The translations under genes were made by a program, and so were the position numbers. The notes beneath the pieces are model-generated. The model made no database searches, was not told the DNA's origin, and saw only the letters and a list, made by a program, of their open reading frames with translations. From a virus, in IMG/VR virus record IMGVR_UViG_3300037245_003639: a stretch of DNA of 64,000 nucleotides. One strand, written 5' to 3'. Of this stretch, positions 23,736-57,529 are shown in pieces (the first letter of the stretch is position 1; each line of letters starts with the position of its first letter).

Positions 23736-25145
23736 TTAATCTTCGGACGTATCATCGTCCGACATTTTCACCAGTCGGGGATGGAAACAAGCGATAATGT
23801 CCACAAGGTCAGTCTGAGCGTCCATGACCTTCAAAATGTCTTTATACGCTCCTGGGACTTCATCCAATCCCGCGGAAATTAGTTTGACATTCCGGTGTCG
23901 TAATTGTTCTCGGACATCAGACCAGCGATACTTTTCCTTAGTTTTTGTTCTGCTCATCGCCCGCCCCGCACCATGCGATGCCGACGATAATGATGCAGCG
24001 TTACCTTTTCCCCGAACAAGAAAACCAGGCGTTGCCATTGAGCCCGGAATGACCCCTAGAACATCCACCCCAGCGGGAGTCGCCCCTTTGCGATGGACAA
24101 TCACAGTCCTGCCATCGTGTTCCTCTCGCCACGCAAAATTATGATGGTTCTCTACCTGTAGCAGAGCATCCCACCCCAATTCACGCAATACATGATAGTG
24201 AATCAGATTATGGTTTGCTGATGCATACTCTCCAGCGAGTTCCATCGCCTTCCAGTAAGCTATGCCATCTTCATCATCCATCGACAACCACGCCAGCCTT
24301 TTATACTGAGGCGGCAGCAAGGGATGTTTCGCTCCTGCAACACGGGTGAAGTGATTGGCCACCTTCGACCCAAGCCCGCGAGAACCGCTATGCGTCAAAA
24401 TGGCTACATACTTACCAGGAGGAACATCTCCAAATTGCTCAGTGAACTCTATTTCACCAACATCGAGGAAGTGATTCCCACTGCCTGATGAACCAAGCTG
24501 ATTCCACGCTCTGTCTTTATCCACAATCCCATCAAGGATAGACCAGTCCCGATCCATTACTTCGTGCTGGCGACGACCTGAACGTTGGAATGCGGCTCCC
24601 AGACCAAAGCGGGTATGCTTCTCGATTGCTTTCGTGATTACAGTTTCTTGCTGCTTGATGGGGTCTCCAGCCGTATCGATGGGGACCACAGATAGCATCA
24701 TGCGACATGCAATGTCTACGCCCACACCATAAGGCATGACAGCATTGTCCATAGCGAGCACGCCACCGATTGGCAAACCATAACCAAGGTGAGCGTCCGC
24801 ACATAAAGCCCCTCTTATCGCAGGCGGAATACTCAGAGCGCGGTTCATCTGATCGATGGTATTTTCATCGATGAAGTCTTTGCCCCAAATGGCTAAGGGC
24901 TTATCTTCGCGGAATGTATACAGTTCTTCTGGGTGGAGAATATTGTACCATAAAGACGCCGCTTCGCCAAAGTGCGCATCGCTTCGTAAAGATGCTGGGT
25001 TGCTAAACAACTCGCGAGCAATCTTCTTGCGAGTTTCAGCACCAACTCCTGCTGTCTTCGCGGATTCCTCGGCTTTCAGCAAAACACCAATCACTGGCCC
25101 TTGCTTGAAGCCAATATTGAGCAATCCTCGTGCCTTGAGTCCCAT
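23736..25145 (-). CDS. rtcB: RtcB-family RNA ligase
   Basis: Diagnostic ENHHNFAW motif, the HNLIHYH stretch, and overall length and composition consistent with 3-phosphate/5-OH RNA ligase. Confidence 0.8.
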   Translation of the reverse strand: MGLKARGLLNIGFKQGPVIGVLLKAEESAKTAGVGAETRKKIARELFSNPASLRSDAHFGEAASLWYNILHPEELYTFREDKPLAIWGKDFIDENTIDQMNRALSIPPAIRGALCADAHLGYGLPIGGVLAMDNAVMPYGVGVDIACRMMLSVVPIDTAGDPIKQQETVITKAIEKHTRFGLGAAFQRSGRRQHEVMDRDWSILDGIVDKDRAWNQLGSSGSGNHFLDVGEIEFTEQFGDVPPGKYVAILTHSGSRGLGSKVANHFTRVAGAKHPLLPPQYKRLAWLSMDDEDGIAYWKAMELAGEYASANHNLIHYHVLRELGWDALLQVENHHNFAWREEHDGRTVIVHRKGATPAGVDVLGVIPGSMATPGFLVRGKGNAASLSSASHGAGRAMSRTKTKEKYRWSDVREQLRHRNVKLISAGLDEVPGAYKDILKVMDAQTDLVDIIACFHPRLVKMSDDDTSED

Positions 25146-25157
25146 AGCTCTTCCGCC

Positions 25158-25616
25158 TCATTCGGTAAATTTCGACAATAACTCTATGGCCTCGGTCTTG
25201 TGGTATTTGAGGAAGCTATCAATCAAGATCGAAACTTGCTCGGCGGTCAGTGGACCGAGCGTATCAGCCCTCTCAGTCACGAGCTTCTTGAGCGTCTTAA
25301 GTCGCTCGGAACTGCTCGGCACCTGATCGATCAAGTCGTGGATTGTTTTCCATGACGACGGCATCGCGGCATACTCGTTTGCGCGTTGCTCAGCCTTCTC
25401 ACTCTCTTGTTGGGCAATGAGAACCGCAAAGAATACGAAGATGACGACCAGGGCCGAGGTGGCGGCCACGGGCTGCCACGCAATTCGCTGATACCAGCGT
25501 GGTGTTGCTCGTGTTGGCTGATACGCGTCAATCTTCTTTCCACAGCGATTACAGAACTTCGCCCCGGGAGTGACCACTGCGCCACAGGATTCGCAGTAAA
25601 GCGTCTTTGACTCCAT
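25158..25616 (-). CDS. membrane-anchored zinc-ribbon protein
   Basis: MESKTLYCESCGAVV...CNRCGKK, then a TM helix. Trimmed behind promoter 25660..25689. Confidence 0.45.
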   Translation of the reverse strand: MESKTLYCESCGAVVTPGAKFCNRCGKKIDAYQPTRATPRWYQRIAWQPVAATSALVVIFVFFAVLIAQQESEKAEQRANEYAAMPSSWKTIHDLIDQVPSSSERLKTLKKLVTERADTLGPLTAEQVSILIDSFLKYHKTEAIELLSKFTE

Positions 25617-25659
25617 CGCTCGCGTCCCTTCTGGTTGCCGCAGTCTTTGTCCAGTGAGC

Positions 25660-25689
25660 ATATTACCAGAGAGAGACCAGATTGTCAAG
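25660..25689 (-). promoter_or_regulatory. sigma70-type promoter (TTGACA-17-TAATAT)
   Basis: ccTTGACAatctggtctctctctggTAATAT. Confidence 0.6.
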
Positions 25690-25857
25690 GATTTTTGCAG
25701 GGTGCTTTACTACTTTCTTGTGTTTTCCAGAACAGTCACACTTCCATAACCTCGGTCGTCTGGGTCTATACTCTCTGCCGCTTCCTGAAACTGTGACAGC
25801 AGCAATAGTGCAACTACCACTCCAAGAAGCAGCAGGAAGACAAACCCTTTCCATACG

Positions 25858-26589
25858 CTATTCATTGTTTGTGCCCACCATGTTTAGGAATACCGCCAGT
25901 TGATTAAGAAACACATGTAGTTCCTTATCACTGGTAAAGACCAGTGTACTGGTATCACCTACTCCCCGTAGTTCTAACGCTGGCTTTCCCTTTGCTTTCC
26001 TTATCTCTGTAGTAGGTAGAAACTTATTGATTGTAGTAAGACTGTCGTTGATTGTACCTGCCCACTTGTCTACCGTTGCATTGCATACCTTGCAACCTGC
26101 CTGTTTCTTCATTCCGCATTTGCAAGGCACTTTGCCTTTGGTACAATCAATGCACTTGCCTTTGACTGTCCTACTCCCTTCACCTAAGCAACGGGGACAG
26201 ACGACAGTGCCTTGGTTGTTGCAAGTGGTGCAAGGTAGTTGTCCACGAGTGCATTTATGACAATCTGTCGTATACTTCTCTATCCACCATTCTCTACGGT
26301 TATATCGGTTGTAGCGTTTACGCGAAGTTGTTATACTGCCACTGCCGTTGCAGACTCCGCATTTCTTGCACCCTTTACCAAAGCATTTATTGCACCTAGC
26401 TATCCCCGCTCCATTGCAACCTGTATTCTCTGTACGCTTGCACGTTACTTGTCTCTCTACTCTGACCCAGTCACCCTTGCAAGTATTACAGATACTCTCG
26501 CCTGTGTTGTTGCAGTCTGTACAGACTTGTCCATGCGCAGGAACAACAACAAACGCCAGCAGCACAACGATTGTCAGTAACGTCCTCAT
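25858..26589 (-). CDS. secreted Cys-rich protein with DnaJ-type CxxCxGxG zinc-finger repeats
   Basis: Signal peptide MRTLLTIVVLLAFVVVPAHG, then repeated CxxCxGxG units (CNGAGIARCNKCFGKG, CGVCNGSGS, CTTCNNQGTVVCPRCLGEGS). Confidence 0.55.
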   Translation of the reverse strand: MRTLLTIVVLLAFVVVPAHGQVCTDCNNTGESICNTCKGDWVRVERQVTCKRTENTGCNGAGIARCNKCFGKGCKKCGVCNGSGSITTSRKRYNRYNRREWWIEKYTTDCHKCTRGQLPCTTCNNQGTVVCPRCLGEGSRTVKGKCIDCTKGKVPCKCGMKKQAGCKVCNATVDKWAGTINDSLTTINKFLPTTEIRKAKGKPALELRGVGDTSTLVFTSDKELHVFLNQLAVFLNMVGTNNE

Positions 26590-26607
26590 ATCTTATCTCC
26601 AGTCGTT

Positions 26608-28128
26608 CTAACGTCTATACACTCCTAACAACGCAGCCAAGTCCGAAAGGTCTACGTCTCCATCAAAGTCAAAGTCTCCCTCGGCTGGCGTCGTATCCCC
26701 GGTCTCTCTGTAGTGGCTGAGGAGTGCGGCGAGGTCAGAGAGATCTACATCCCCATCTCCATCCATATCACCAGGACGATGCGAAGCGTATTCATCGGCA
26801 CCCATGTCCACCAGCCAGCCAGACCCGCCATCCCAAACGCGCAATTGACCGTCCATATCACGCTCATAGAGTGAGTACAGAACATCAGGATCGCCGGTAT
26901 CAATACAGGGAGAACCTGACAACAGATGCCCCTCGCTGCCCAGTAGAGGGTCGAGAGCGATAGAAGTATCGTGGTCCCAAAGAAGCACGCCGCCCGGGGT
27001 GATAAAAACCCCATACCAGCCATATTCGACATCAGAATATGAGACTGTGACGGTGCCGGAACTGCTAATGGCTATTTCCGCCCCCTCATTTGCTGTATCT
27101 CCCCATAAAATCGAATTCACTAGATAAACATCGCCGCGGTAGTCGCAGTGGACGCCGCCGCCACGATCGAAAGCCGTGTTCCCCGTGATCGTGCAGTTGG
27201 TGATGGTTATGTCGGAGTAGTAGTCGCAGTGCGCCCCACCGCCGCCGTCGTCAGCCGTATTCCCACTGATTGTGCAGTTGGTCAGCGTCGCGCTGCTGTT
27301 TTCACTGCAATGGACGCCGGCGCCGGACCCGCCCATGTTGTCGCTGATCGTGCAGTTGGTCAGCGTCGCGCTGGAGGAGTAATAACAGCTAATGCCGCCG
27401 CCGAAGGAGCTTGCCGTGTTCCCCGAGATCGTGCAGTTGGTAATCACCGAGCTGGAGTCGCGGCAGTAGATGCCCCCGCCGTAGCCGTCTGCCGTGTTGT
27501 CGTTGATCGTACAGTTTGTGAGCGTGGGGCTGCCGATCCGACAGTAGACGCCGCCGCCGTAGACTGCCGTGTTGTCGTTGATTGTGCAATTTGTAATGGT
27601 CGGACTGGAGGAGTCGTTGCAATAGACGCCGCCGCCGTTTGTGCTTGCCGTGTTCCCAATTATTATGCAGTTTATAATAACCGGGCTGGATGAGTTGATG
27701 CAGCGGATACCACCGCCATAATCGCTAACCTGCCCATTAGTAATAGAAAATCCATTCACCACGGAATCAGGCCCTTCACCAAACCTGAAATAGAACCCCC
27801 TGCCATCACCTTCGCAATCGATGACGCAATTAGCAGCTCCGTTCTCGGAGCGCACCGTGACCGCCTTACCGCCAAAGTCCAGGTTTTTGTTGAAAAGCCC
27901 CGTATAACGCCCATTGGCCACCAGAACAGTATCGCCATCTTGACAAAGGAAGATAGCTTCCTGAATAGCATCGAACGGATGCTCGACAGAACCATCCTCC
28001 AGTGGGTCACTAACCATCGGATCGCCGGGACCGGGGTCACTGGGTGCATTGTCATCAACATACCAAGTGGTTTGGCTCCAGGCAGGAGCAATAACGAATA
28101 ACAAAACCGAAAGAGTGAGATATCTCAT
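26608..28128 (-). CDS. secreted parallel beta-helix repeat protein with C-terminal dockerin
   Basis: Signal peptide, NCTI(S/N)(G/D)NTA beta-helix repeats, and C-terminal DMDGDGDVDLSDLAALL plus DFDFDGDVDLSDLAALL (type-I dockerin Ca-binding repeats). Confidence 0.7.
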   Translation of the reverse strand: MRYLTLSVLLFVIAPAWSQTTWYVDDNAPSDPGPGDPMVSDPLEDGSVEHPFDAIQEAIFLCQDGDTVLVANGRYTGLFNKNLDFGGKAVTVRSENGAANCVIDCEGDGRGFYFRFGEGPDSVVNGFSITNGQVSDYGGGIRCINSSSPVIINCIIIGNTASTNGGGVYCNDSSSPTITNCTINDNTAVYGGGVYCRIGSPTLTNCTINDNTADGYGGGIYCRDSSSVITNCTISGNTASSFGGGISCYYSSSATLTNCTISDNMGGSGAGVHCSENSSATLTNCTISGNTADDGGGGAHCDYYSDITITNCTITGNTAFDRGGGVHCDYRGDVYLVNSILWGDTANEGAEIAISSSGTVTVSYSDVEYGWYGVFITPGGVLLWDHDTSIALDPLLGSEGHLLSGSPCIDTGDPDVLYSLYERDMDGQLRVWDGGSGWLVDMGADEYASHRPGDMDGDGDVDLSDLAALLSHYRETGDTTPAEGDFDFDGDVDLSDLAALLGVYRR

Positions 28129-28376
28129 GTTTTTCTCCGACCGCCCCGTTTACCCAATTCCAGTGATTTGTCAGGACCGTAGAAAATATACTGCACTACT
28201 TCGACGCTGACCGTGTGGCCATGTGCTTTGGCATGTCTCGCTGCAACGCCCTGAGCATTCAGACTGGACCATTCCTTCTCACAGTCTTGGCATACTGCAA
28301 AAATGCATCGGCGACCCAGTTTGTAGCTCATGTCAATCCTACCAGCTAATTCCGTAGTCTCCAAGCAAGTCGGCAA
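28125..28376 (-). CDS. small zinc-binding protein
   Basis: CIFAVCQDCEKEW...HAKAHGH. The start is uncertain because the ORF overlaps its neighbour. Confidence 0.3.
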   Translation of the reverse strand: MPTCLETTELAGRIDMSYKLGRRCIFAVCQDCEKEWSSLNAQGVAARHAKAHGHTVSVEVVQYIFYGPDKSLELGKRGGRRKT

Positions 28377-29115
28377 GGTCGCTTAGATCGACGCACCCAT
28401 CACCGTCGAAATCAGCGTCAGGGTTGTAGTCATCATCGCCGGTGCATGAGAAGTAGGCCGCTAACAGCGCGGCGAGGTCGGAGAGATCCACGTCACCGTC
28501 ACCATCGATGTCGCAGATCACAACGACTTCCAGATCATCTATCCATACATCATCATGATGTTCCGGTATGTAATTCCCAAGACTGAGTTCAACAGAGTAG
28601 ATAGCATTACCTTCCGTAGATATACCAAATCGCCGACTATGTCCGTCACCTCCTCTGGATGGTTGTATTTGATGAAGTGGGTTACCTTCGGCATCAAACG
28701 CAGTTATAAGAGTACCCCATCCCTCTGCTGATGCTTCGAGATCAATGAAGCTTGCGCTTACAGATTGAACTCCCCGTGGACTGCCGCTGATTGGATCGAC
28801 AAACCGTAACCGAAAAATCCCCGAAACCCAAACCTCGCCAGGGATGACCCCAATGGAAGGGGCTGGAATCAGTACGTGGCCCAAATACTCTCTACCATCA
28901 CCATACACATTTTGCATAGTTTGTCCATTTTGCACGGACGGCAGTTGAGACTCGTCAGGATCTCCCAGGTGAGAAATGGGTTCGAAAACGATTCCCACAC
29001 TCATCAACTGGTTCGCCAGGATAGTTCCCACGGGGAATGTATCAAAATTCACAGTTGTCGTCGAGCCTCCATAGGCCACAGCCGCGAGCAAGAACGATAC
29101 CAAAGTCGCTTTCAT
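28339..29115 (-). CDS. secreted protein with C-terminal dockerin
   Basis: MKATLVSFLLAAVAYGG signal peptide behind a GGAGG RBS. C-terminal DIDGDGDVDLSDLAALLAAY and DFDGDGCVDLSDLADLL. Confidence 0.65.
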   Translation of the reverse strand: MKATLVSFLLAAVAYGGSTTTVNFDTFPVGTILANQLMSVGIVFEPISHLGDPDESQLPSVQNGQTMQNVYGDGREYLGHVLIPAPSIGVIPGEVWVSGIFRLRFVDPISGSPRGVQSVSASFIDLEASAEGWGTLITAFDAEGNPLHQIQPSRGGDGHSRRFGISTEGNAIYSVELSLGNYIPEHHDDVWIDDLEVVVICDIDGDGDVDLSDLAALLAAYFSCTGDDDYNPDADFDGDGCVDLSDLADLLGDYGISW

Positions 29116-29167
29116 AGTTTGCCTCCAGAGAATCACAGAATCATAACCAGGACTACTGCCGAGATGT

Positions 29168-29196
29168 ATGCTACCAGAGATAGAGAAGATTGTCAA
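29168..29196 (-). promoter_or_regulatory. sigma70-type promoter (TTGACA-17-TAGCAT)
   Basis: ccTTGACAatcttctctatctctggTAGCAT. It lies in a roughly 47-bp block that is duplicated at 29684-29730. Confidence 0.6.
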
Positions 29197-29221
29197 GGCT
29201 TTTTTCAGGGTGCCTCATCTC

Positions 29222-29674
29222 TCAAGCACATTGGATACCAGCAACAATCGAGACCAGCACAATTACAGCCGCGACCCCGACGACTACCGGCGCATGTCGG
29301 CCACTCAATTCTCGACATCGGCGACATGCTACTTGGCCCTGCGCCTTCATAGCCGCCATCGCCCTCTGTCTGTTCTCCTTCCACTCCGCTCTCAGTTCAT
29401 TTTCTCTCTGGAGTTGCTCTTGGCATTCCCTTTGTTGTCGCGCCGCTTGTTCGTTATCTTGTTCCTTACGCTTCTTTATCACAGCATCCGGGATGGCGGG
29501 CACTGCCGCAATCGCGATGAGCGCAAGTAGACTAAAAAAGAATCCCACCGCAAACCACCCGCCAGGATCTCGGTTTTTCTGGCCTGCGATGTAGGCGCAA
29601 AACCCACCCATCACAACACCCCCAGCAAGCATTAGGATCAACAAGAGTCCTACCGGCAACTCATCCATAGCCAT
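29222..29674 (-). CDS. membrane protein
   Basis: Three TM helices and a Gln/Arg-rich coiled segment. Confidence 0.45.
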   Translation of the reverse strand: MAMDELPVGLLLILMLAGGVVMGGFCAYIAGQKNRDPGGWFAVGFFFSLLALIAIAAVPAIPDAVIKKRKEQDNEQAARQQRECQEQLQRENELRAEWKENRQRAMAAMKAQGQVACRRCRELSGRHAPVVVGVAAVIVLVSIVAGIQCA

Positions 29675-29684
29675 CCTCCAGTAA

Positions 29685-30245
29685 TTATATGCTACCAGAG
29701 ACAGACGAAATTGTCAAGGCTCTTTTAGAGTGTCCAATTTTCTCCATTAGTTTCTCCATAAAATCGGCCACTTTTCTTAGTTCCTCCGCCGTCGCATCAC
29801 TTTTTATAGTGTTCGCCCGATGGCTGATAATCTGAACATTTCCCTTAACGTATCCTTCTGATGGGACAATTCGATCCACTGTAGGAGAGTTGTGTCCGGC
29901 ACCACCTGAGTTGATTTCGAGTGTGTAACCAAGAACAGGACATTTTTCCGGAACCTTAACATCATCATGAGTCAAATTAAACGGAAGCCCTCGTTTTTTT
30001 GCCCGAGTCTTTGTTTGGTACAGCAGATAGGATTCAGGATTCCGCCTGATTTCTGCCCGCTTATACGCCCGCATAGCATCGGGATCTTTCTTATACTTAC
30101 CATTGTAGCTCTTTAGGGCTCTGGCAATCTCCTGGCCTCGATTTTCAACGTAATAACGTTTTAGATAATCCTTACACTTGGAACATGTTTTCAAACCATT
30201 GAAATCGGACTCTGGGCGGTCTTGTCCACATCTGGAACAAATCAT
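29685..30245 (-). CDS. HNH endonuclease
   Basis: CSRCG...CSKC zinc ribbon plus GHNSPTVDRIVPSEGYVKGNVQIISHRAN (the H-N-H core). Its last 10 codons overlap the promoter copy at 29688..29716. Confidence 0.65.
   Translation of the reverse strand: MICSRCGQDRPESDFNGLKTCSKCKDYLKRYYVENRGQEIARALKSYNGKYKKDPDAMRAYKRAEIRRNPESYLLYQTKTRAKKRGLPFNLTHDDVKVPEKCPVLGYTLEINSGGAGHNSPTVDRIVPSEGYVKGNVQIISHRANTIKSDATAEELRKVADFMEKLMEKIGHSKRALTISSVSGSI
29688..29716 (-). promoter_or_regulatory. sigma70-type promoter (TTGACA-17-TAGCAT), the duplicated copy
   Basis: ccTTGACAatttcgtctgtctctggTAGCAT. Confidence 0.55.
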
Positions 30246-30312
30246 GGCAATCTCCTGTCAAAAGCCTATTGATACTTAGGCTTTCGACGAAAGAGATGTC
30301 TGTTCCTTTATT

Positions 30313-31257
30313 TTATCCAAAAAAGTCATCGGCGTGGATGAATTGGAATCCGCATCGAGAGGCGAAGGTGCGATCTGTCGTCTGATCCCCCACCATTATT
30401 GAGTCACTCGGGGACAGGTTATGTTTCATAATGAACTGGACGCCCAATCCGCTCATTGGTTTGCGACAGTAGCAGTTGATGGGAGCAGGGTTATGAGGAC
30501 AGTAGGCATACTCAATGTCTACCTGGAGCTTCCTATTCGTAATATCAAAGCAAGCTCTAGCTTGCTCATCAGTTGGGCTCCCCTTGGCCACTCCGCTCTG
30601 GTTGCTGACGCCGAGTAAGGCGTAGCCCTCTTTTTCATACTTACGCAGGACAGCCGCCCGCCCTGGAAGAACCACAACTTGCTTCGGGTCTGTAGGCCAC
30701 TTCAACTCTGCCCCATTAGTATCTTCGCTTACCCGGAGAGTGCCATCGTAGTCCAAGATGATAGCGGCGTTCGTCCACTTTGCGGGAAAGCCCCGCATAA
30801 ACGGTCGCCTGTCAACTCGATGGAAGCCCTCAGCTACAGTGGGCGCCTGGAACTGCTTGCGGTAATTGAACAACACAGCAGTGGGAAACATATTTGGGCT
30901 GGAATGCTTTTTGATTTCCTCAGGCATCAACAGTCTGCCTTCACGCTCGATCATCCGCACGCAAGCGTTGAATTGAGCGTCTTCGATGGTGGCTGTGAGC
31001 CAGTCACAAATGACTGTAACATCGAATTTTTTGGCAGCCTCAAGGAAGGGTTTGCGGCTCTCGACTGTAGGGAAGGTGTTGTCGAGAACAACGTCTTTGC
31101 CCGCTTTGAGAGCGGCCACCATCTTGGGAACCAAATCAGCTACTTTGCCCCCGGCCTTATCTCGATTGAGATAGACAAAACCCTGCTCTGTATAGGCCGA
31201 GGCGATTGAGGACTTACCCGCAGCGGGATAGCCCATTACCATAACGACTCGTGGCAT
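30313..31257 (-). CDS. pnkp: T4-type polynucleotide 5-kinase / 3-phosphatase
   Basis: N-terminal P-loop GYPAAGKSS (kinase) and C-terminal ILDYDGTL (the DxDGT HAD-phosphatase motif), in the same order as T4 Pnk. Confidence 0.7.
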   Translation of the reverse strand: MPRVVMVMGYPAAGKSSIASAYTEQGFVYLNRDKAGGKVADLVPKMVAALKAGKDVVLDNTFPTVESRKPFLEAAKKFDVTVICDWLTATIEDAQFNACVRMIEREGRLLMPEEIKKHSSPNMFPTAVLFNYRKQFQAPTVAEGFHRVDRRPFMRGFPAKWTNAAIILDYDGTLRVSEDTNGAELKWPTDPKQVVVLPGRAAVLRKYEKEGYALLGVSNQSGVAKGSPTDEQARACFDITNRKLQVDIEYAYCPHNPAPINCYCRKPMSGLGVQFIMKHNLSPSDSIMVGDQTTDRTFASRCGFQFIHADDFFG

Positions 31258-31264
31258 CAGATTC

Positions 31265-31489
31265 TCACGTTGCAAAGTAGATGACGACAGTAACGACAGT
31301 AATCAAAGCAGCTAGTCGAACGTAGATGCGGGCTTCCATGCCATTCACGCCATTCACGCCATTCACGACTTCCGCTCGCAGTTTCTCGTAACAATCCGGA
31401 CTAATGTCGCCGTTGGCAAGAGCTTCGGCAAAATGCACCGTGTGGCCCGGTGACTGTATCGTCTCCGCAATCAGCTTCTGGCTGTCCAT
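31265..31489 (-). CDS. hypothetical protein
   Basis: 74 aa with a C-terminal TM segment. Confidence 0.35.
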   Translation of the reverse strand: MDSQKLIAETIQSPGHTVHFAEALANGDISPDCYEKLRAEVVNGVNGVNGMEARIYVRLAALITVVTVVIYFAT

Positions 31490-31890
31490 CAGTCTTCCTT
31501 TGAGGCTTTCACGATACGAGGCATGGTTTGGTCTGGAACTTTGTAGAAAGCGACGTAATACTTCTTGTCTTCTACCATGCTGTTGTAGAGTTCCAGGTCT
31601 GTGGTTTCTTCTGAGCCTTCACAGAGCCAAGTCTTTTGTTTGTCATCTACGACGAAGAATTGTTCCTTGTGCTCTCTCTTCTCGGCGATGGTAATGAAAC
31701 AACGCTGTAGATTCTGCTGGGCTTCCTCAACTTGTTCGAGTTCTCTTGCTCGATTGATAGAAGGGATGAGGATTGAAGCACAGAGCGCGACAATAGCCAC
31801 CACCACGATGAGTTCGAGTAGCGTGAAGCCTTTAGTCGGGATAGAGCTTTTGGCGTGCCTCATTGAGTTTCTCCGATACGAACTCAGCAA
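31489..31890 (-). CDS. prepilin-type (type IV pilin or pseudopilin-like) protein
   Basis: KGFTLLELIVVVAIVALCASILIP is the classic prepilin N-terminal cleavage and methylation segment. Confidence 0.6.
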   Translation of the reverse strand: MLSSYRRNSMRHAKSSIPTKGFTLLELIVVVAIVALCASILIPSINRARELEQVEEAQQNLQRCFITIAEKREHKEQFFVVDDKQKTWLCEGSEETTDLELYNSMVEDKKYYVAFYKVPDQTMPRIVKASKED

Positions 31891-32059
31891 GCAGACTGCC
31901 TTCTACATCTCCGTCGTAGAATTTGGCCAACAGTGCGTCATCCCCTGGCTCGTCCTCAGTTTCTGGGACGCCATCTCGTTCTAAAAGCTCCCAGCATTCG
32001 TCCTCGTGATTACAGCGGAAATACAGTTTGCGAACATCGTAGGTTTCTTGAAGTTTCAT
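31832..32059 (-). CDS. small acidic hypothetical protein
   Basis: 75-aa ORF. Confidence 0.35.
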   Translation of the reverse strand: MKLQETYDVRKLYFRCNHEDECWELLERDGVPETEDEPGDDALLAKFYDGDVEGSLLAEFVSEKLNEARQKLYPD

Positions 32060-32098
32060 TCTCGCCCTCAGTGATGGATGAATTCCTCGGGCGGAATG

Positions 32099-32184
32099 AA
32101 AAAAATCAACGTGGGAGATATGTTCCCGGCTACACCACCGACCCTATGGATCGAGCAGGATTCGAACCCGCCATCTTCTCCCAC
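32099..32184 (-). ncRNA. tRNA-like small RNA candidate 2 (74-nt cloverleaf-like core plus U-tract)
   Basis: Promoter 32191..32219 puts the start exactly at GTGGGAG. The RNA forms a 7-bp terminal helix GTGGGAG/CTCCCAC enclosing three hairpins, the first being GCGGG-TTCGAAT-CCTGC (a T-arm consensus), and ends in GTTGATTTTTTTC. It shares the motifs ATGGCGG(G)TTCGAATCC, GGTGTA(A/G)C(C)GG and GATTTTTTTC with candidate 1. Confidence 0.5.
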
Positions 32185-32190
32185 ATTTCT

Positions 32191-32219
32191 ATCATACCAT
32201 ATGTACCTGAGACTGTCAA
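32191..32219 (-). promoter_or_regulatory. sigma70-type promoter (TTGACA-17-TATGAT) driving the tRNA-like RNA
   Basis: ccTTGACAgtctcaggtacatatggTATGAT. Confidence 0.65.
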
Positions 32220-32234
32220 GGGAAATCCTGAGTG

Positions 32235-32804
32235 TTACGGGACTTCCGGAGCAGTGATAGTCACGAATTTCTTGAGCATGTCCGTGAGCGGCACAGACTG
32301 TCCCATGGCGGAACTATCGGAAAAAGCCTGATTGACAATGCGAGTGAAACCTGTCAAGCCCAAAGACGGAAGATCCTCGGCATTCTCCAGGAAAACGCCA
32401 AGCGTCAGCAAGCGGGCTTCTTGGTTGACGTAACCCTCCATCTCGCCCATGCTATCGTAGAGAACTTTCCACGCTCCCGGCAGATCATCATTCAACGCCG
32501 CTTCGCCAGCTTCGATGACGTTGCCGATGCAGAAGATAGCTCCACCCAGAATCACTGAAACCATCGTCACGGTGAACACGAGTCTGCCAATCACGCCCGG
32601 ATGCTCTTTCATGTAGGCTCGGGCTTTCTTGACGCGGAAGCCTACCACGCGCATGAATCCAGCCAGCAAAACCAGCCCACCAGCAGCCATCCAGCCCCAC
32701 GACAGGAAACCCTGCCATAGAGCCCGCATCGCAACAGGGTCAAACGCGATTTGTACCCCGTTCTCTGTCCATTCAGCGTCCATTTCGGAACTCCAAGTAG
32801 TCAA
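32235..32804 (-). CDS. membrane protein
   Basis: Several TM helices (WGWMAAGGLVLLAGFM, LVFTVTMVSVILGGAIFCIG). Confidence 0.45.
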   Translation of the reverse strand: MTTWSSEMDAEWTENGVQIAFDPVAMRALWQGFLSWGWMAAGGLVLLAGFMRVVGFRVKKARAYMKEHPGVIGRLVFTVTMVSVILGGAIFCIGNVIEAGEAALNDDLPGAWKVLYDSMGEMEGYVNQEARLLTLGVFLENAEDLPSLGLTGFTRIVNQAFSDSSAMGQSVPLTDMLKKFVTITAPEVP

Positions 32805-33090: not shown

Positions 33091-33097
33091 AAACACG

Positions 33098-33126
33098 ATA
33101 ATACCCGTCTTTGAGAAGATTGTCAA
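33098..33126 (-). promoter_or_regulatory. sigma70-type promoter (TTGACA-17-TATTAT)
   Basis: gacTTGACAatcttctcaaagacgggTATTAT. Confidence 0.6.
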
Positions 33127-33833: not shown

Positions 33834-34011
33834 GGCTCTGCTCGTTTGAAATTCCGTAATACCGCACGTACTCGCAGTTGTAATCGAGACCACCGTGATC
33901 TTTGCCGCCTGGGTGGCTTATTTGCTCGGCATACAGCAAGCATCGTCAGCATCGGCAGGGCAAACGGTAAACGTTTGATCCGAGCCTCAAGTTCTTGATC
34001 ATTCATTCCAC

Positions 34012-34841: not shown

Positions 34842-35477
34842 CTAATATCTTTCCGAAGTGATATCGCGATATTTAAGCTTGAATTGGCAACGCGACTTCT
34901 TCGAGCTATTTAGGTCAAGTTGCAACTTACCGCGTTTCTTCTTTAGCACAATGCCTTCGGTGAGATGCATTCCCATGCCACCTGCGATCCAGTCGTCCTT
35001 GAGTTCATTGAAGTGGCCAAAGAAATCATTCTCGCGGGTCTCGGCCAAACAGACATCCTGCCCGTTGGCAAGGTCTTGACAACGAGCCCAACGCTCGACG
35101 TATGGTTCATTGGGCAACCATGCGTCATCCCACGCCAAACAGTCGAAGATGTAAACCCGAGGTTCATGGCCTCCCCGTGGACCCACGAACTCAGCATCAA
35201 TGACTGTCTCATCAGGAATGGGCAGCCGCAGCAACTGTTGGATGATGACTTCGGGCATCTTCGATCTGGCACTGATAAAGCGCCCCACCCGAGACAGTAG
35301 CGACATACCGGCTGGAGTTTGACCATCAGGCAACAGGATCATACCTGCCGATTTGTAGATTTCCAAACGCCAGCCATCATATTTGTGCTGACTGAGCCAT
35401 TCATGGGGGCGCAGGGTAGGCAATAACTCTGGTGTGCATTCCTTGGGCTTATCTGGATGACGAAAGCGCTTGAGCAT
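34842..35477 (-). CDS. minimal ATP-dependent polynucleotide ligase (DNA-ligase-like nucleotidyltransferase)
   Basis: Motif I KYDGWR (KxDGxR), motif III VIDAEFV, motif IV EGIVLKKK and motif V FKLKYR. Confidence 0.6.
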   Translation of the reverse strand: MLKRFRHPDKPKECTPELLPTLRPHEWLSQHKYDGWRLEIYKSAGMILLPDGQTPAGMSLLSRVGRFISARSKMPEVIIQQLLRLPIPDETVIDAEFVGPRGGHEPRVYIFDCLAWDDAWLPNEPYVERWARCQDLANGQDVCLAETRENDFFGHFNELKDDWIAGGMGMHLTEGIVLKKKRGKLQLDLNSSKKSRCQFKLKYRDITSERY

Positions 35478-35810: not shown

Positions 35811-35816
35811 GCTGAC

Positions 35817-52053: not shown

Positions 52054-52234
52054 CGTTCCTCTCCGTCACCTTTTCCGAGACGCTATGCTATATTAGCAGT
52101 ATGAAATGGGATTGCAAGCGGATTCAGGATAAAGTTCACCGTCCAGTAAATCATCGTCCTTTAACAAAAGCTCTGATAACGTTTCTCGACAAACCTTGCA
52201 GGAATTACATCACTTTCTGAGTTACACACATATC

Positions 52235-55200
52235 ATGGAGTCCCAAATGTCCTTCCGATATCAATTCAATAAAAAAGCCATGTTTGTCCATGGCGAAGGC
52301 GACCAAATTGTTGCTTACCGCGATAAAATATGGCTGCTGAGTCGTAACGACGACGAAGCCAATGTCCCTATTATGGAAGACATCGAGAAAACGCTCGCAT
52401 TTGAGCCATTAGGAGATGTCCATGATTTGCTGGGAGCTATTAGGGACAATCGCCCTGATGTTCTGACAGGTTTTATCGAAGGTGACCAGTTGAATATCAA
52501 CGTCGGTAGCGACTGGCGTTTTGGTCGAGGGTCTCACCTTCTTCAGAAAGTCATGGAGGAACTTGGACTAAGAGAAGTCATCTATACCAACCTTGAAGGA
52601 GAGGAATACGAAACCACTCACGGTTCAGAAATCACTGGCCAAATGCCCAAGTATCTCTATCATGGAACTACATCAGAGAACGCTTTCGGCATACTGCGTT
52701 TCGGACTCGCTCCTGACAGAGCCGATACAAATTACCCCAGTAAAGGCGGTAATCCACCCATTGAACATTATGACAAAGTATTCCTCACGGAAGATATCCA
52801 GAATGCTGAGTATCACGCTTTCAATGCGGTAACTCGCGATATCCAACCTGGAATGCCTGGGCAATATGACGTTAACAACCAAGGCCGAGGATTCCCGGTT
52901 ATCTTCCAGTTTCAAATTCCTGATCCAAATCTCTTAATCGCAGATTTAGATGTTGAACATATGTCGGATACTCCTACCGGGCACTATGATTATGTGCCTG
53001 AAAGGAGAGAGCACGATCCCCAAATTAAAGAATCCCCCGAGCAATTCTCTAAGCAAGTTGGGCTTCTGGGATATAAAGGTCGTATCCCTGCGAACTTCAT
53101 TACTGACATCATGGTCTGGATCGGCGACACAGAAAAAACCTATGGCTTTGATGAGGACAACTGGCAAAGAGTAGAGGCCGAGCAACTTGAACGAGCATTG
53201 GAGTGGGGCGACATTCAAGGCATCTATTACGATCCTGAAGAGGATGAAGACTACTGTGCTGAATGCGGTAGTATGCGTGATGATGAAGGCCGCTGTGAAT
53301 GCGAGGAACCTGAAGTTGAGTCCATAGCAAGACAAGCTATGGTCAAAACCGCTCGCACGAAAAAGATAGTTAATGCACTTGCGGAAACTAAAACCGAAAG
53401 TTATTTGATTCACGATATTGACCGCTACATCTCAGATGATATTGCCATCAATATTACTTTCCAAGAAACAAAGCATCGTTATTCCGTGGGCGTATACAGC
53501 ACTAACTATAAGGTTGGAGTTTCCGGCTATCAAGAATACTGGCATTATGATCGTAGCGACCGAGCGCAGGCCCTAAAGACTTACAACTCTATCGTCGCTG
53601 TGATAGCCGAAATGGTAGAAGAAATCGAGTTCAATGCTATCCCGCACACTTTGGCTAAGCCTTTTTTGGTAAAACGTCTCGATAAAATCGACGTGGAGCA
53701 CAAAGAACGAAGTGGCGTGTATCATTACAATTGGTTCGCCGCAGAGGCTGAAAAAGAAGAAGACTGGCGCTCAACCATTTATGGCAAACGGTATCCTGTT
53801 GCTCCTTACTTAGAGCGGTTAGACCACAACTGGAATGAGCCCGGGCAAAGCAGTGCTATTGAAACTAAAGGCCAAAGCAGGCACAAAACATATCAATTCC
53901 GTTATGCGTCAAGCAAGACAAGTCTGACTAAAGACGGAGGCAAGGGTCTAGGATTCTTACTCGGTTTGTCACCTGGATTATTGGGTGCCTTTCTAATGTG
54001 GGCTGCTCATATTAAGGGGCTACCACAAGAAGAAGTTATTCAGCAGGCCAATGAGAATCCTCAAATGCTCGCTCCTATTGTTCATGAGTTTAAGGAGTAC
54101 GCTGAAGTTCCCCTGTACGAGGAACCACTAGAAGCCATCACAGCCCCTACCGAGACCACTTCTTTTGACGATGCTTTAGCCGTCACATTGCAACATGAAG
54201 GTGGCTACGTCAAAAATGAGGTTGAGGAATCTTACCGAGGTGTTCGACGAATAACCTACGAGAGATATCTGGAGCAGCGGGGTTTACCGACTGACAATAT
54301 AGACATGCATAACATTCCAGAAGAGCATCTTCAGGATATTTATCGCACAATGTATTGGGATGCTTCAGGGGCAAACGAATTATCTCCACTTTTGGCTCAG
54401 CAAGTATTTGATTTTGCAGTCAATTCTGGCTCAGGCCGAGCAACACGTTATCTTCAAGGGATTATTGGAGTTGGTCAGGACGGGATTTTCGGCCCAAAAA
54501 CAAAAGCAGCCACAGAAGCCTATATCACCAAACATGGCGAGGAAGCCTTGGCCCAAGAGTACATTCATCGCCGTCGTGCTTTTATAACAGAGTCTGAGAA
54601 GATTCCTGACAAACTCAAGCCAGGGTTATTGAACCGTATTGATGCTATGGAACAATTGATTTCTCCCGCGAAAGAGATGCCCATCAAACCAAACTCTCCC
54701 GAACGTCGTTCCAGGGATGTTCCTGAACGTTTGATTCGTCCATTCTGGAGCAACCAGATTCATATACTGAATGATGGCAAAGAGGCTCAAGCCAAACCTA
54801 TGGCCTTAGAGCCAGGGGCTTACAAAGACGAGCCCATTCCGCACAGGTGGGTCAGCCATTTAGATGCCGCTCCGACGCCATATGGCATAATCCCTCAAAA
54901 ACAAGATCCGAAAGAAATTGAAGAGATGTATGCAGGCGTTCACGCTACTCCCAATATCAACATCGCCGCAATTTATGCGAACAACAGGGGGACAAAAAAA
55001 GATCCACCCGTTGTGATTGAGTTTGCCACTAAGCAATCTTGGGAACCTGACGTGGATATCGATACTCCAAGCGCTCGCGCTCAAATGGAGAGTATTCACG
55101 AACAAATTCAGGAAATCGATGGCCTTGGAGAACATATTGAGAGGTTCGAAGAGACCAACGAAATCGACTGGGAATATATCGAGGAGGTGTTCGATAAAAT

Positions 55201-55909
55201 CGAATCTAACGACGAATATCCCGATGTCTATGAGACCGATTATTCCAATTTTGATGTAAGTGACTACTTGCAAGAGAATGCTCAACGCGCTACACTCTCG
55301 GACTTGGCTGAGTTTTTCAGGACATTCTACGCGGAAGAAGATGACAGACAAGGCGTCTTTGATTTCCAACCTCCCCGGCACCTATTGGGTTTCTACGAAT
55401 GGTATCTAGCACCACTTTTCACAGGTCATGGAACCCTCGATGCGCGAATCGACGCTTGGTTTCTGAACCAGATGCGGTTTATGGACCCAATAAATGAGGA
55501 CGAAATCCTTGCTATTTACGAAGTTACCCGCTATAATCCAGAGGTATATGACTCCTGGAATCCCGAGACCGGCGAGGATGACGCTCGGGAGGAAGACGAT
55601 GAGGGTCGTCAGCTTGTCTCTCTGGAAGAAACGAATTATTGGGAACCGTCATTATCAAAGATTTGGGAATCGCCAACTGCCGATGCCAACCGCCAAAAAC
55701 AAACCTCTTACTACCATGGAACATCACTCAACCGAGCCCAAAAGGCCCTCAGTGGCATTCTTGATGTCCGCTCTGCCGCTTCAGAACTTGTGGTCAAACA
55801 TGGCCGGCATTGGGGAAAGATTGCCACGGAATTACGGCGGCGCGGCTTGCCCAAAACAGTGATAGCGAGCGTAAATGAGCAGTTTTTGAGAAATTTACGC
55901 ACCGCCTAA
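52235..55909 (+). CDS. giant multidomain protein with a GH108-type lysozyme and a peptidoglycan-binding domain, flanked by PARP-like (ART) segments
   Basis: The central LAVTLQHEGGYVKN...YRGV is the GH108 EGGY signature. It is followed by a PG_binding_3-like region (FDFAVNSG...GQDGIFGPKTKAA). YLYHGTTSENAFGILRFGL at the N-terminus and YYHGTSLNRAQKALSGIL near the C-terminus resemble the H-G-S/T...GIL catalytic start of the PARP at 59513. The start could be 52235 or 52247. Confidence 0.55.
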   Translation: MESQMSFRYQFNKKAMFVHGEGDQIVAYRDKIWLLSRNDDEANVPIMEDIEKTLAFEPLGDVHDLLGAIRDNRPDVLTGFIEGDQLNINVGSDWRFGRGSHLLQKVMEELGLREVIYTNLEGEEYETTHGSEITGQMPKYLYHGTTSENAFGILRFGLAPDRADTNYPSKGGNPPIEHYDKVFLTEDIQNAEYHAFNAVTRDIQPGMPGQYDVNNQGRGFPVIFQFQIPDPNLLIADLDVEHMSDTPTGHYDYVPERREHDPQIKESPEQFSKQVGLLGYKGRIPANFITDIMVWIGDTEKTYGFDEDNWQRVEAEQLERALEWGDIQGIYYDPEEDEDYCAECGSMRDDEGRCECEEPEVESIARQAMVKTARTKKIVNALAETKTESYLIHDIDRYISDDIAINITFQETKHRYSVGVYSTNYKVGVSGYQEYWHYDRSDRAQALKTYNSIVAVIAEMVEEIEFNAIPHTLAKPFLVKRLDKIDVEHKERSGVYHYNWFAAEAEKEEDWRSTIYGKRYPVAPYLERLDHNWNEPGQSSAIETKGQSRHKTYQFRYASSKTSLTKDGGKGLGFLLGLSPGLLGAFLMWAAHIKGLPQEEVIQQANENPQMLAPIVHEFKEYAEVPLYEEPLEAITAPTETTSFDDALAVTLQHEGGYVKNEVEESYRGVRRITYERYLEQRGLPTDNIDMHNIPEEHLQDIYRTMYWDASGANELSPLLAQQVFDFAVNSGSGRATRYLQGIIGVGQDGIFGPKTKAATEAYITKHGEEALAQEYIHRRRAFITESEKIPDKLKPGLLNRIDAMEQLISPAKEMPIKPNSPERRSRDVPERLIRPFWSNQIHILNDGKEAQAKPMALEPGAYKDEPIPHRWVSHLDAAPTPYGIIPQKQDPKEIEEMYAGVHATPNINIAAIYANNRGTKKDPPVVIEFATKQSWEPDVDIDTPSARAQMESIHEQIQEIDGLGEHIERFEETNEIDWEYIEEVFDKIESNDEYPDVYETDYSNFDVSDYLQENAQRATLSDLAEFFRTFYAEEDDRQGVFDFQPPRHLLGFYEWYLAPLFTGHGTLDARIDAWFLNQMRFMDPINEDEILAIYEVTRYNPEVYDSWNPETGEDDAREEDDEGRQLVSLEETNYWEPSLSKIWESPTADANRQKQTSYYHGTSLNRAQKALSGILDVRSAASELVVKHGRHWGKIATELRRRGLPKTVIASVNEQFLRNLRTA

Positions 55910-56032
55910 AACTTGAAGATAAGGGTGATAAAACAAGCCATAGGTAGTCTCAAACCCGTATACCACTAGTTATAGTGACCTTGTAGAAACTCAATGAATA
56001 CTACATTAAAGCTGGAAAGTGCAATAAAAAGC

Positions 56033-56061
56033 TTGACACGACTTGTCAAGCCCTGTAATGT
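56033..56061 (+). promoter_or_regulatory. sigma70-type promoter (TTGACA-17-TAATGT) embedded in the palindrome CTTGACAcgacTTGTCAAG
   Basis: gcTTGACAcgacttgtcaagccctgTAATGT. Confidence 0.55.
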
Positions 56062-56135
56062 CTATCGACGGGGTCAACGGGGGATTGGTAATAAGACCAA
56101 AAATGTAAGTTCATTAGGACGAACGGAGAAAGACG

Positions 56136-57113
56136 ATGGCGACGGCAATAAGGAAAAGAAAACAGCCCCCGGCTAAGCCCCAAATTCCTTTGCAAGGAAG
56201 AAGGGCCAACCGAATAGCTCTGGACTTTACAAGAGGTCAGGGACCAAATCGCCGCACATTTTACAAGTGCGGCGTACTCGAAGCCGCAAGACGGCATCAG
56301 CTTCCGCTAAGAGTGGTTGATAAGAATGGCGTTGTACACCTCATTCCGCCTGACCGCATGGTTCACCGACCCCAACTCGATGACAAATTCGGTGATGCCC
56401 ATGAATTGTCAGGACAGGGCAAATACATCGACAACGATGCCCTCAGCGGGCGAGGCCAAAACACAACCGTAACCGGCGCTCAATATGTCAACCCGTATCT
56501 GGCCGAAGACCGTTCCTACCATACCATCATTCAGTGCTTCCATCATCTTGCAAAACAGACCATCACCAGATTGTCGGCTCGCTTTGCGCGTGATCGCGTC
56601 AACGGTCAACATCTGCTGTGGCAAGGTAAATCCGCTGTGGACGGAGCAGTAGCTGTCTCACCCTGGATCACCGAGGACGAATTGTGGGAGCTGGCCAACA
56701 ACCTCAATCCGGGTTTGAAGGCTCTACTCCGCAAATCCAAAGCCGCCATCAAGAAGGGCGTCAAGAAGCATCAGACGCCGAGAGGCAAATTCGGCGACAA
56801 CCTAAATGTTCTTCGTCGTGCGCGACGGACATTCCGGACAGCGACAGGTGAAACCGAGTATCGCGGCGGTGAGACACCTTACGGAGTCCCGTTGGAGCAA
56901 TGTGGTTTTGCCATCGACATGTTCTTCCTCACGACAGGCTACGACGAGGGTCTAGAAGTAGGCGAATACCACTTCCGTCTCGCCTATGGTCGAAATACGC
57001 CGTGGATACTGTATTATCGTGACTGGCAAGGCATGGGAACCCAAGACCGCATCGCGTTCCTCAACAACAAAATCCGCACAGACGTAATCCAGCGATACGA
57101 TCAGCAGACTTAG
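56136..57113 (+). CDS. hypothetical protein (325 aa)
   Basis: GGAG RBS, no confident motif. Confidence 0.45.
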   Translation: MATAIRKRKQPPAKPQIPLQGRRANRIALDFTRGQGPNRRTFYKCGVLEAARRHQLPLRVVDKNGVVHLIPPDRMVHRPQLDDKFGDAHELSGQGKYIDNDALSGRGQNTTVTGAQYVNPYLAEDRSYHTIIQCFHHLAKQTITRLSARFARDRVNGQHLLWQGKSAVDGAVAVSPWITEDELWELANNLNPGLKALLRKSKAAIKKGVKKHQTPRGKFGDNLNVLRRARRTFRTATGETEYRGGETPYGVPLEQCGFAIDMFFLTTGYDEGLEVGEYHFRLAYGRNTPWILYYRDWQGMGTQDRIAFLNNKIRTDVIQRYDQQT

Positions 57114-57529
57114 TTGGGCTCGCCCGGTGATACGGCGTGTTCGCCGCCGGGCATGACTGCTACTGTTAGATGTAGTGGGACTAAAGGTTGTGCAGGCAAC
57201 CCAAGAGCCTGACGAATCTGCAATAAACCTTCACATTCTACCGGCAACCAGAGATGCTTGTCATTCGTGACAAGTTGGTGGGCATATCCAAACTGCATCT
57301 CTCTGTTCTGGTACGGTAGAATCTTTCCTTCCTCTACCAGTTCTTGTCTCATAACTGTAATATGCGGCCCCCATGCTGGAGGCATCATGGCCGCATAGCG
57401 ACAAGTGAACTTGCGACATAGGTAACGATGATACCGAGCAAGCTCAGTGCAACATTCCACGAGCATCCACCAGTAACCGGGTCTAGCCCGAGATGGAATC
57501 ACTTTAATGTTTCCGCTTGACAATCTCAT
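57110..57529 (-). CDS. 2H phosphoesterase superfamily protein (LigT/CPDase or Acb1-like fold)
   Basis: Two H-x-T-x motifs (GPHITVM and PLHLTVAV). This is a minus-strand gene inside the plus block and is leaderless behind promoter 57536..57564. Confidence 0.5.
   Translation of the reverse strand: MRLSSGNIKVIPSRARPGYWWMLVECCTELARYHRYLCRKFTCRYAAMMPPAWGPHITVMRQELVEEGKILPYQNREMQFGYAHQLVTNDKHLWLPVECEGLLQIRQALGLPAQPLVPLHLTVAVMPGGEHAVSPGEPN

Follow-up and report, generated by a model that had tools for sequence, protein, structure and literature searches.

Putative end-processing enzymes in a 64-kb piece of a huge-phage genome: indications that RtcB, Pnkp, an OB-less ligase domain and a 2H phosphoesterase are inherited separately

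A stretch of 64,000 nucleotides from the virus record IMGVR_UViG_3300037245_003639 (IMG/VR), hereafter referred to as the window, was analysed with respect to four genes predicted to encode enzymes acting on nucleic acid ends: an RtcB-type RNA ligase, a polynucleotide kinase/phosphatase (Pnkp), a small ligase of 211 amino acids (aa) and a 2H phosphoesterase. An initial annotation had located these genes and interpreted them as one redundant set for healing and sealing broken RNA. All four genes are indeed present at the coordinates it had given, with intact catalytic motifs. Based on the comparison with related loci we consider it somewhat more probable, at roughly 55%, that they represent four separately inherited end-processing genes rather than one module, RtcB and Pnkp being accessory, the small ligase a core nick sealer and the 2H protein a cyclic phosphodiesterase. 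The features on which this account is based are the following:

23736..25145, minus strand: RtcB-type 3'-phosphate/5'-OH RNA ligase, 469 aa (PF01139, PHROG 1075, alignment with PhoRtcB)
30313..31257, minus strand: bifunctional polynucleotide 5'-kinase/3'-phosphatase (Pnkp), 314 aa (AAA_33, PNK3P, mammalian PNKP)
34842..35477, minus strand: stand-alone nucleotidyltransferase (ligase) domain without OB domain, predicted member of the ATP-dependent DNA-ligase clade, 211 aa (PF01068, fold, profile)
57110..57529, minus strand: compact stand-alone 2H (HxT/HxT) phosphoesterase, 139 aa (HxT motifs, predicted fold)
32100..32219, minus strand: YrlA-like tRNA-mimic small RNA of ~85 nt (RNA ~32100-32186) with its promoter (Rfam RF02553, promoter, copy in the related locus L053)
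21893..32059, minus strand: variable segment of ~10 kb with 14 genes including those of RtcB and Pnkp (comparison with the related loci L053 and L054)

The G+C content of the window is 49%, and its genes are encoded on the minus strand up to approximately 52 kb and on the plus strand beyond. Since homologs of the small ligase are located on contigs of 263-522 kb and those of Pnkp and the 2H protein in uncultured or cultured phages of 366-595 kb, and given its gene content, the window is a piece of a huge-phage genome of approximately 400 kb. The huge-phage markers detected comprise a GH108 lysozyme within a 1237-aa protein, an AAA ATPase with an intein and a sigma-70 region-4 protein; GroEL, Cpn10 and ClpS are encoded by the relatives. 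No nucleotide match to positions 23000-36000, the one 13-kb stretch compared, was obtained among 50,697 deposited phage genomes (INPHARED). The view thus covers 64 of ~400 kb of this genome and, in its relatives, 10 kb on either side of the ligase gene. These relatives are huge-phage loci from metagenome contigs, designated by names such as L053 and L054; gene clustering was evaluated across ~20 distinct ligase-bearing loci.

The putative RtcB protein matches Pfam PF01139 with 264 bits (cutoff 27; E=3.9e-78) and, in its residues 80-463, PHROG 1075 'tRNA splicing ligase' (E=5.9e-88), while an N-terminal extension of ~80 aa could be assigned no role. In the alignment with the structurally characterised RtcB of P. 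horikoshii (PhoRtcB; PDB, E=3e-32) the catalytic motifs coincide, namely DAHLGYG, DIAC, GSGNHF, HSGSRGLG, HHNF (AHN in PhoRtcB) and SHGAGR. The predicted nucleophile is His391 within the HGAGR motif, aligned with the GMP-accepting histidine of PhoRtcB, namely His404 in the same motif. Homologs were found in 521 phage records, every one of them less than 60% identical. On the basis of these alignments the assignment as a predicted RtcB is secure. By homology, the enzyme would join 2',3'-cyclic-phosphate or 3'-phosphate ends directly to 5'-OH ends using GTP and Mn2+.

Pnkp starts with the ATG that its coordinates imply; the mechanically derived open reading frame (ORF) runs on to a TTG at 31275. 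Its N-terminal part is a P-loop kinase (GYPAAGKS, residues 9-16; Pfam AAA_33, residues 10-97, E=3e-9) and its C-terminal part a HAD phosphatase with the DxDxT motif DYDGT (residues 169-173; Pfam PNK3P, residues 175-316, E=2.4e-5). Both domains align with mammalian PNKP (1YJ5, E=2.1e-24) in permuted order: the mammalian enzyme is arranged as FHA, phosphatase and kinase, whereas the protein in the window consists of the kinase followed by the phosphatase and lacks FHA. It had been described as T4-type, which holds for the domain order and not for the sequence, as T4 Pnkp (1LTQ) shows no significant similarity (E=1.2, 11.4 bits, versus 2e-24 for mammalian PNKP). A tblastn search of the phage collection returned 7 records only, none of them from T4-like phages. 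The ortholog in L054 is 58% identical, and full-length homologs occur in the huge uncultured phages LR756511 (49.5% identity) and LR756500 (32.6%). In LR756500 the gene is located among tRNA genes and a transfer-messenger RNA (tmRNA) gene, a neighbourhood which is consistent with a role in RNA metabolism. The assignment as a predicted Pnkp is likewise secure. Acting on the same broken ends as RtcB, the enzyme would be expected from homology to generate 3'-OH and 5'-phosphate ends for an ATP-dependent ligase. The proposal that both the direct chemistry (RtcB) and the heal-then-seal chemistry (Pnkp) are encoded is therefore supported as far as the enzyme identities are concerned.

The 2H phosphoesterase is encoded by the only minus-strand gene within the plus-strand block. 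It contains the motifs HITV (residues 56-59) and HLTV (residues 120-123), of which H56 and H120 are invariant in 36 members of a family of stand-alone huge-phage proteins of ~135 aa. The protein matches PHROG 12204 (E=2.6e-14) and, with 20.4 bits and hence under the cutoff of 27, Pfam PF22547 (2H-SAK). Since the sequence search against the PDB gave no match, only fold comparison was informative for its classification, and the predicted structure matches the 2H-enzyme fold; together with the invariant histidines this agrees with the HxT/HxT identity proposed at the outset. Homologs were detected inside a dense array of 22 tRNAs in 5.7 kb (L047, 126-5761), in a tRNA gene array adjoining RlaP and TROVE/Ro60 (L049), and also near NAD kinase, NUDIX, PARP and macro genes. 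A 2',3'-cyclic phosphodiesterase activity towards RNA ends or ADP-ribose-derived cyclic phosphates is the probable function of the protein.

The 211-aa ligase matches PF01068 with 33 bits (cutoff 26.2). Motifs I, III, IV and V, which had been recognised before, were all found: motif I as KYDGWR (residues 32-37), III as DAEFVG (94-99), IV as EGIVLKK (174-180) and V as FKLKYR (199-204), and in addition motif IIIa as YIFDC (109-113). The key residues of the motifs are invariant in 23 homologs. A search of 5.8 billion proteins yielded 36 homologs of 138-242 aa, the full-length ones comprising ~190-240 aa, and 37 loci were identified in the metagenome scan; no protein match was obtained in IMG/VR, nor by tblastn in the deposited phage genomes (INPHARED). 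In a Foldseek search of the PDB with the AlphaFold2 model (pLDDT 93) the 50 best matches were adenylation domains of DNA ligases (African swine fever virus (ASFV) ligase, LigIV, Lig1, LigIII, LigD and archaeal enzymes) and a capping enzyme. RNA ligases were absent from these 50 matches as well as from the 45 PDB profile matches, in which Lig1 (8e-10) and LigD (1.6e-9) preceded the capping enzyme (6.5e-6). Weak precomputed Pfam matches to RNA_ligase (PF09414) exist for some homologs, and precomputed mRNA_cap_enzyme matches for some. Based on the ranking of fold and profile matches the protein is therefore classified as a predicted nucleotidyltransferase of the ATP-dependent DNA-ligase lineage, not of the RNA ligases, and the RNA-ligase identity initially assigned to it was not borne out.

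All full-length homologs stop ~10 residues past motif V and lack the C-terminal OB domain with motif VI. Across 24 ligase ORFs the stop codons are TAA (13), TAG (8) and TGA (3), and the downstream frame is unconserved and rich in stops. Because the stop codons differ between the members and nothing is conserved downstream, the shortness is real and the proteins form a genuine OB-less family. On the same grounds we rejected an artefact of stop-codon recoding, which had been considered as relatives carry tRNAs of the amber-suppressor type. Such tRNAs (anticodon CTA) were located in L023 (775-844), L029 (4192-4265), L034 (3790-3862) and L052 (24535-24603), which hints that some members of the clade recode TAG; the long ORFs of the window end in TAA (9), TGA (7) and TAG (6). 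An OB partner encoded beside the ligase was rejected as well, the adjacent upstream and downstream genes being heterogeneous across the ~20 loci with none of them conserved.

Self-adenylylation of DNA ligases and capping enzymes normally depends on the OB domain and its motif VI. The textbook example of a minimal ATP-dependent DNA ligase, that of Chlorella virus PBCV-1 (298 aa), shares with the small ligase its nucleotidyltransferase lineage and motifs I-V; however, it possesses the C-terminal OB domain and motif VI, whereas the family described here is ~90 residues shorter. Most likely, the small ligase would be adenylylated at Lys32 and seal nicks with 3'-OH and 5'-phosphate ends, the substrate being DNA or a DNA/RNA hybrid. 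That it acts as a self-sufficient OB-less polynucleotide ligase, representing a core gene of an uncultured clade of phages of 260-520 kb and sealing DNA or DNA/RNA nicks, is a possibility which we advance only tentatively. If true, no ATP-dependent ligase of the DNA-ligase lineage would be smaller, the Chlorella virus enzyme being ~90 residues longer, and the 211-aa protein would work without the domain held necessary for self-adenylylation and nick clamping. Unaided nick sealing would redefine the minimal ATP-dependent ligase and provide a compact enzyme for biotechnology. A literature text search for an OB-less enzyme of the DNA-ligase lineage found nothing, and this ligase is the only unusual piece of the four.

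The comparison with the relatives suggests that the genes are inherited independently of each other. Within the window they are dispersed over 34 kb among unrelated genes. The variable segment harbouring RtcB and Pnkp is bounded by the conserved YrlA-like RNA on one side and by a conserved HATPase_c_3 gene (20037-21821) on the other. In L053, the ligase of which is 70% identical, the upstream block (genes for proteins of 634 aa, 338 aa, a VWA protein and 148 aa), the ligase gene and three downstream genes are retained, as are the YrlA-like RNA and the HATPase, radical-SAM, NAD-kinase and NUDIX genes. The flanking genes are 30-78% identical, and ~2 kb of unrelated small ORFs replace the segment at 21.9-32.1 kb with Pnkp and RtcB. 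In L054 (ligase 59% identical) the ligase gene is followed by genes encoding a 107-aa protein, an Rnl2-type RNA ligase, a zinc ribbon, NUDIX and Pnkp, and no RtcB was found; for the Rnl2-type ligase (10967-11794, 275 aa, motif I KVDG) the window, which encodes RtcB instead, offers no counterpart. L011 (4709-6943), L018 (8256-10496) and L028 (13396-15657) encode, a few kb from the small ligase, a fusion protein of 745-753 aa composed of a P-loop kinase, a calcineurin-type metallophosphoesterase (Metallophos) and an Rnl1-type ligase (RNA_lig_T4_1), which is predicted to be a complete heal-and-seal enzyme.

RtcB was found within 10 kb of the ligase in none of the ~20 distinct loci, and a Pnkp of the window type only in L054 and L055, there within 3 kb. 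In LR756511 and LR756500, the closest Pnkp-bearing phages in GenBank, the whole records gave no match to the small ligase, and RtcB is absent up to a distance of 20 kb from Pnkp. From L053, L054, L011/L018/L028 and the comparison with deposited phages it follows that the small ligase is, as judged by gene content, a core gene, and that Pnkp, RtcB and true RNA ligases are exchangeable accessory genes of a variable region. Neither the coordinated set nor the Pnkp-ligase pair of the initial annotation is upheld by these data: the ligase occurs without Pnkp, and in those relatives which possess Pnkp a true RNA ligase adjoins it or is fused to it. A search of the 64-kb window with the ligase domains of the relatives (phmmer and tblastn) revealed no Rnl1- or Rnl2-like ligase or remnant. 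Thus, the small ligase is the sole candidate in view for sealing ends healed by Pnkp, an argument from absence in 64 of ~400 kb; as the only classical ligase in the 64 kb it may also finish Pnkp-healed breaks.

Repair genes are swapped in and out of the variable region: RtcB is present in the window, an Rnl2-type ligase in L054, the Pnkp-Rnl1 fusion in L011, L018 and L028, whereas L053 has none of these. Such exchange is in line with local arms races against host RNases.

The segment in the window also carries surface- or secreted-type proteins unusual for a phage, together with a zinc-ribbon protein. Among them are a beta-helix protein with Chlam_PMP repeats and a dockerin (26608-28128) and a pilin-like protein with an N-terminal methylation motif (31489-31890), and the product of 28339-29196 has weak, sub-threshold EF-hand matches.

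The initial annotation had further mentioned tRNA-like RNAs in the neighbourhood. ARAGORN detected neither tRNA nor tmRNA genes in the window, and no Rfam family reached its gathering score; what stands is a single sub-threshold RNA instead of several, and no tRNA gene. A permissive Rfam scan placed YrlA (RF02553) at 32093-32195 on the minus strand with 26.2 bits (gathering score 69; E=0.23 for the window, 0.0022 locally), in the gap of 175 nt which separates two minus-strand ORFs located between the ligase and Pnkp genes. It is preceded by a sigma70-type promoter matching the consensus at 11 of 12 positions (TTGACA at 32219-32214, a 17-nt spacer and TG-TATGAT at 32196-32191). According to the cmscan alignment the RNA is built from a T-arm with GGUUCGAAUCC in the T-loop, an acceptor-like hairpin and a D-arm. 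A stem of 10 bp closes the structure, a U-run comes after it, and the folding energy corresponds to z=-3.1. A syntenic copy in L053 (8910-9045, plus strand) reaches 40.5 bits (E=1.6e-5) with an equal promoter layout, and its independent minimum-free-energy fold yields the matching four helices. The covariance model R1, built from the copy in the window, finds the L053 copy with 47.5 bits and, weakly, one in L042. In the R1 alignment 93% of the cells are paired, compared with at most 54% in slid controls, and 11 pairs are changed on both sides; being derived from three model-aligned sequences, this covariation is suggestive.

No TROVE/Ro60 match was found by Pfam among the scanned ORFs of the window. 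A split Ro60, composed of the 338-aa protein (37802-38818) and the VWA protein (36632-37453), was rejected, as the former is nicotinamidase-like and the latter is a generic VWA protein without a match in the PDB or of the Ro60 type. A second exact copy of GGTTCGAATCC at 9274-9284 on the minus strand, followed by the D-arm-like GUGGUGUAACGGAAGCAC, was attributed to chance, the motif count being at chance level; the site folds weakly (z=-1.7), lacks a promoter on the minus strand and is not matched by R1. A conserved, promoter-driven tRNA mimic without an adjoining Ro60 gene represents a second small lead and could be a decoy or a cofactor for RNA-targeting defence or repair.

Taken as four separately inherited genes, RtcB and Pnkp would be the parts most plausibly reversing damage to tRNA or rRNA caused by host RNases, and the segment which encodes them lies directly downstream of the promoter-driven YrlA-like RNA. 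Several points weigh against this account. All functions are assigned here by homology. The OB-less enzyme may need a partner or behave differently from other members of its lineage, and genes for phosphoesterases or kinases recur less than 10 kb from the ligase in 15 of the ~20 distinct loci, which could reflect a functional link of the ligase to end-healing. The score of the YrlA-like RNA does not reach the gathering threshold of Rfam, and the window yielded no Ro60. Finally, LigA, Rnl1/2, Ro60, archease or tRNA genes may lie outside the visible 64 kb and would change the logic of the pairing.

The reading proposed initially, in which a single redundant system heals and seals ends, the 211-aa enzyme is the dedicated sealer of Pnkp and the 2H protein prepares cyclic-phosphate ends, seems unlikely. 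It would be in accordance with the small ligase being the only classical ligase in the window and encoded on the strand of Pnkp, 3.6 kb upstream of it, with the tRNA-mimic RNA between the two genes, with the proximity of ligase and Pnkp in L054 and L055, and with the weak RNA_ligase matches of some homologs. However, the ligase is retained in L053 although the corresponding segment lacks Pnkp and RtcB, other members of the clade provide Pnkp with different partners (Rnl2 in L054, the Rnl1 fusion in L011, L018 and L028), the nearest Pnkp-bearing phages lack the small ligase, and by fold and profile the enzyme belongs among DNA ligases. The 2H gene, furthermore, is located 22 kb away in a different conserved block, on the strand opposite to its neighbours. 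The affinity to DNA ligases could instead point to DNA-break repair, with Pnkp, the small ligase and a protein combining PARP and WGR domains forming a eukaryote-like single-strand-break pathway which would act in the phage genome on 3'-phosphate/5'-OH breaks caused by host nucleases. This would explain the similarity of Pnkp to the mammalian enzyme instead of T4 Pnkp and that of the ligase to Lig1, LigIV, LigD and the ASFV ligase. In the PARP, which carries a WGR domain, the H-Y-E triad is intact; its gene lies downstream of that of the small ligase, at a distance of 3-4 kb, in L029, L033 and L034 (with a weaker PARP-like match in L023), and genes of NAD salvage or turnover (nicotinamidase-like, NAD kinase, NUDIX) are present in the window. 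We nevertheless regard such a pathway as less likely still, as neither an OB nor another DNA-clamping domain is present, Pnkp occurs near tRNA genes (LR756500) or an RNA ligase (L054), and Pnkp is an accessory gene as opposed to the core ligase. Whether PARP is found near the ligase depends on the lineage, their proximity may be synteny only, and phage PARPs are usually read as host-modifying enzymes (PMC7824862).

Two further alternatives concern single proteins. Instead of a role in RNA repair, the 2H protein could degrade signals of host defence, its substrates being cyclic-oligonucleotide or 2'-5'-linked second messengers, as is the case for Acb1, coronavirus ns2 and the poxvirus cGAMP phosphodiesterase. 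It shares with Acb1, ns2 and LigT/ThpR the two HxT motifs and the 2H fold; however, it is only 9-15% identical to all of these, shorter than LigT and could be assigned to no subfamily. We consider an anti-defence function rather improbable. The initial annotation, which had named both cyclic phosphate ends and cyclic-nucleotide signals, was fair in its hedge. The 211-aa protein, in turn, might not be a polynucleotide ligase at all but transfer GMP or AMP in a cap-like manner, AMPylate proteins or small molecules, or represent a regulatory remnant. The absence of the OB domain and motif VI, the capping enzymes among its structure and profile matches, the mRNA_cap_enzyme matches of some homologs and the lack of a conserved adjoining partner would be compatible with this. 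Of the alternatives it appears to be the most doubtful, since the invariant motifs III (DAEFVG), IV (EGIVLK) and V (KLK) correspond to the ligase rather than the capping consensus and DNA ligases precede capping enzymes by at least three orders of magnitude in E-value.

Phage T4 repairs tRNA-Lys cut by the anticodon nuclease PrrC with its Pnkp and Rnl1. The window has in common with this system the Pnkp chemistry, the kinase-phosphatase order and the heal-then-seal logic; it differs in the lack of significant Pnkp similarity (E=1.2) and of an Rnl1 in the window, and an anticodon-nuclease link of its genes is purely inferred. In bacterial Pnkp/Hen1 RNA repair, the Pnkp of the Clostridium thermocellum type comprises kinase, metallophosphoesterase and ligase. 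The 745-753-aa protein of L011, L018 and L028 is trifunctional with an equal domain order, its ligase domain matching RNA_lig_T4_1, whereas the Pnkp in the window is a two-domain kinase-HAD protein without a ligase domain.

The Salmonella Rtc/Rsr locus is organised as rsr-yrlBA-rtcBA, YrlA being a tRNA-mimic Y RNA, and YrlA RNAs are known beside Ro60 in bacteria and phages (Chen et al. 2014, PMC4201824). RtcB likewise occurs in the window together with a YrlA-like RNA with T-arm, acceptor-like hairpin and D-arm. However, this RNA is short (~85 nt), sub-threshold and without a clear Ro60-binding stem, it is located 7 kb from RtcB, and Ro60/TROVE, RtcA and RtcR were not found in the window. Moreover, an RNA of this type is conserved in L053 without RtcB in the corresponding segment.

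Jumbo phages have been described to encode varied combinations of RtcB, ATP-grasp RNA ligases, polynucleotide kinases, phosphoesterases and 2H enzymes (Iyer, Anantharaman, Krishnan, Burroughs and Aravind 2021, Viruses 13:63; PMC7824862). The same survey reports Ro/TROVE with a tRNA-like partner RNA, PARPs and NAD-salvage enzymes, and argues that the ligases are non-redundant (PMC7824862). The window fits these repertoires with the difference that its only classical ligase in view is of the OB-less DNA-ligase type and not Rnl1 or Rnl2. As a repair set, it adds an example to a pattern already catalogued for jumbo phages.

Beside the genes discussed above, the following were identified in the window:

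59477-61114, plus strand: PARP catalytic domain with WGR (FQWGRTG), 545 aa, H-Y-E triad intact (domain matches)
37802-38818, minus strand: nicotinamidase/isochorismatase-like protein, 338 aa, DxQxDF ... K ... C, weak PncA match
40996-41805, minus strand: PP2C phosphatase, with a homolog in L054
42990-43496, minus strand: sigma-70 region-4 protein
44506-44994, minus strand: DUF3268 zinc-finger-containing-domain protein, sub-threshold topoisomerase-type zinc-ribbon match
18464-19549, minus strand: radical-SAM protein, just under the Pfam cutoff, with homologs in L053 and L054
20037-21821, minus strand: GHKL (HATPase_c_3) protein, under the Pfam cutoff, with a homolog in L053

The PARP and WGR protein represents a eukaryote-like break-sensing PARP architecture in a phage, and orthologs were detected in L006, L029, L033 and L034. 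The window furthermore encodes a network of NAD/ADP-ribose genes on the minus strand, comprising the nicotinamidase-like protein (37802-38818), an NAD kinase (17622-18494), a NUDIX protein (12138-12671) and a nucleoside 2-deoxyribosyltransferase-like protein (5367-5933), the latter scoring 28.3 bits, just under the Pfam cutoff of 30. These genes may support or balance the PARP.

The AAA ATPase (47165-49861, minus strand) is split by an intein with a LAGLIDADG homing-endonuclease domain, and its ortholog in L006 (457 aa) is intein-free. The 1237-aa protein (52196-55909, plus strand; 1248 aa in L006) contains an internal GH108 lysozyme and a peptidoglycan-binding domain and is probably a virion-associated lysin or injection protein. 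Its gene marks the switch of the coding strand.

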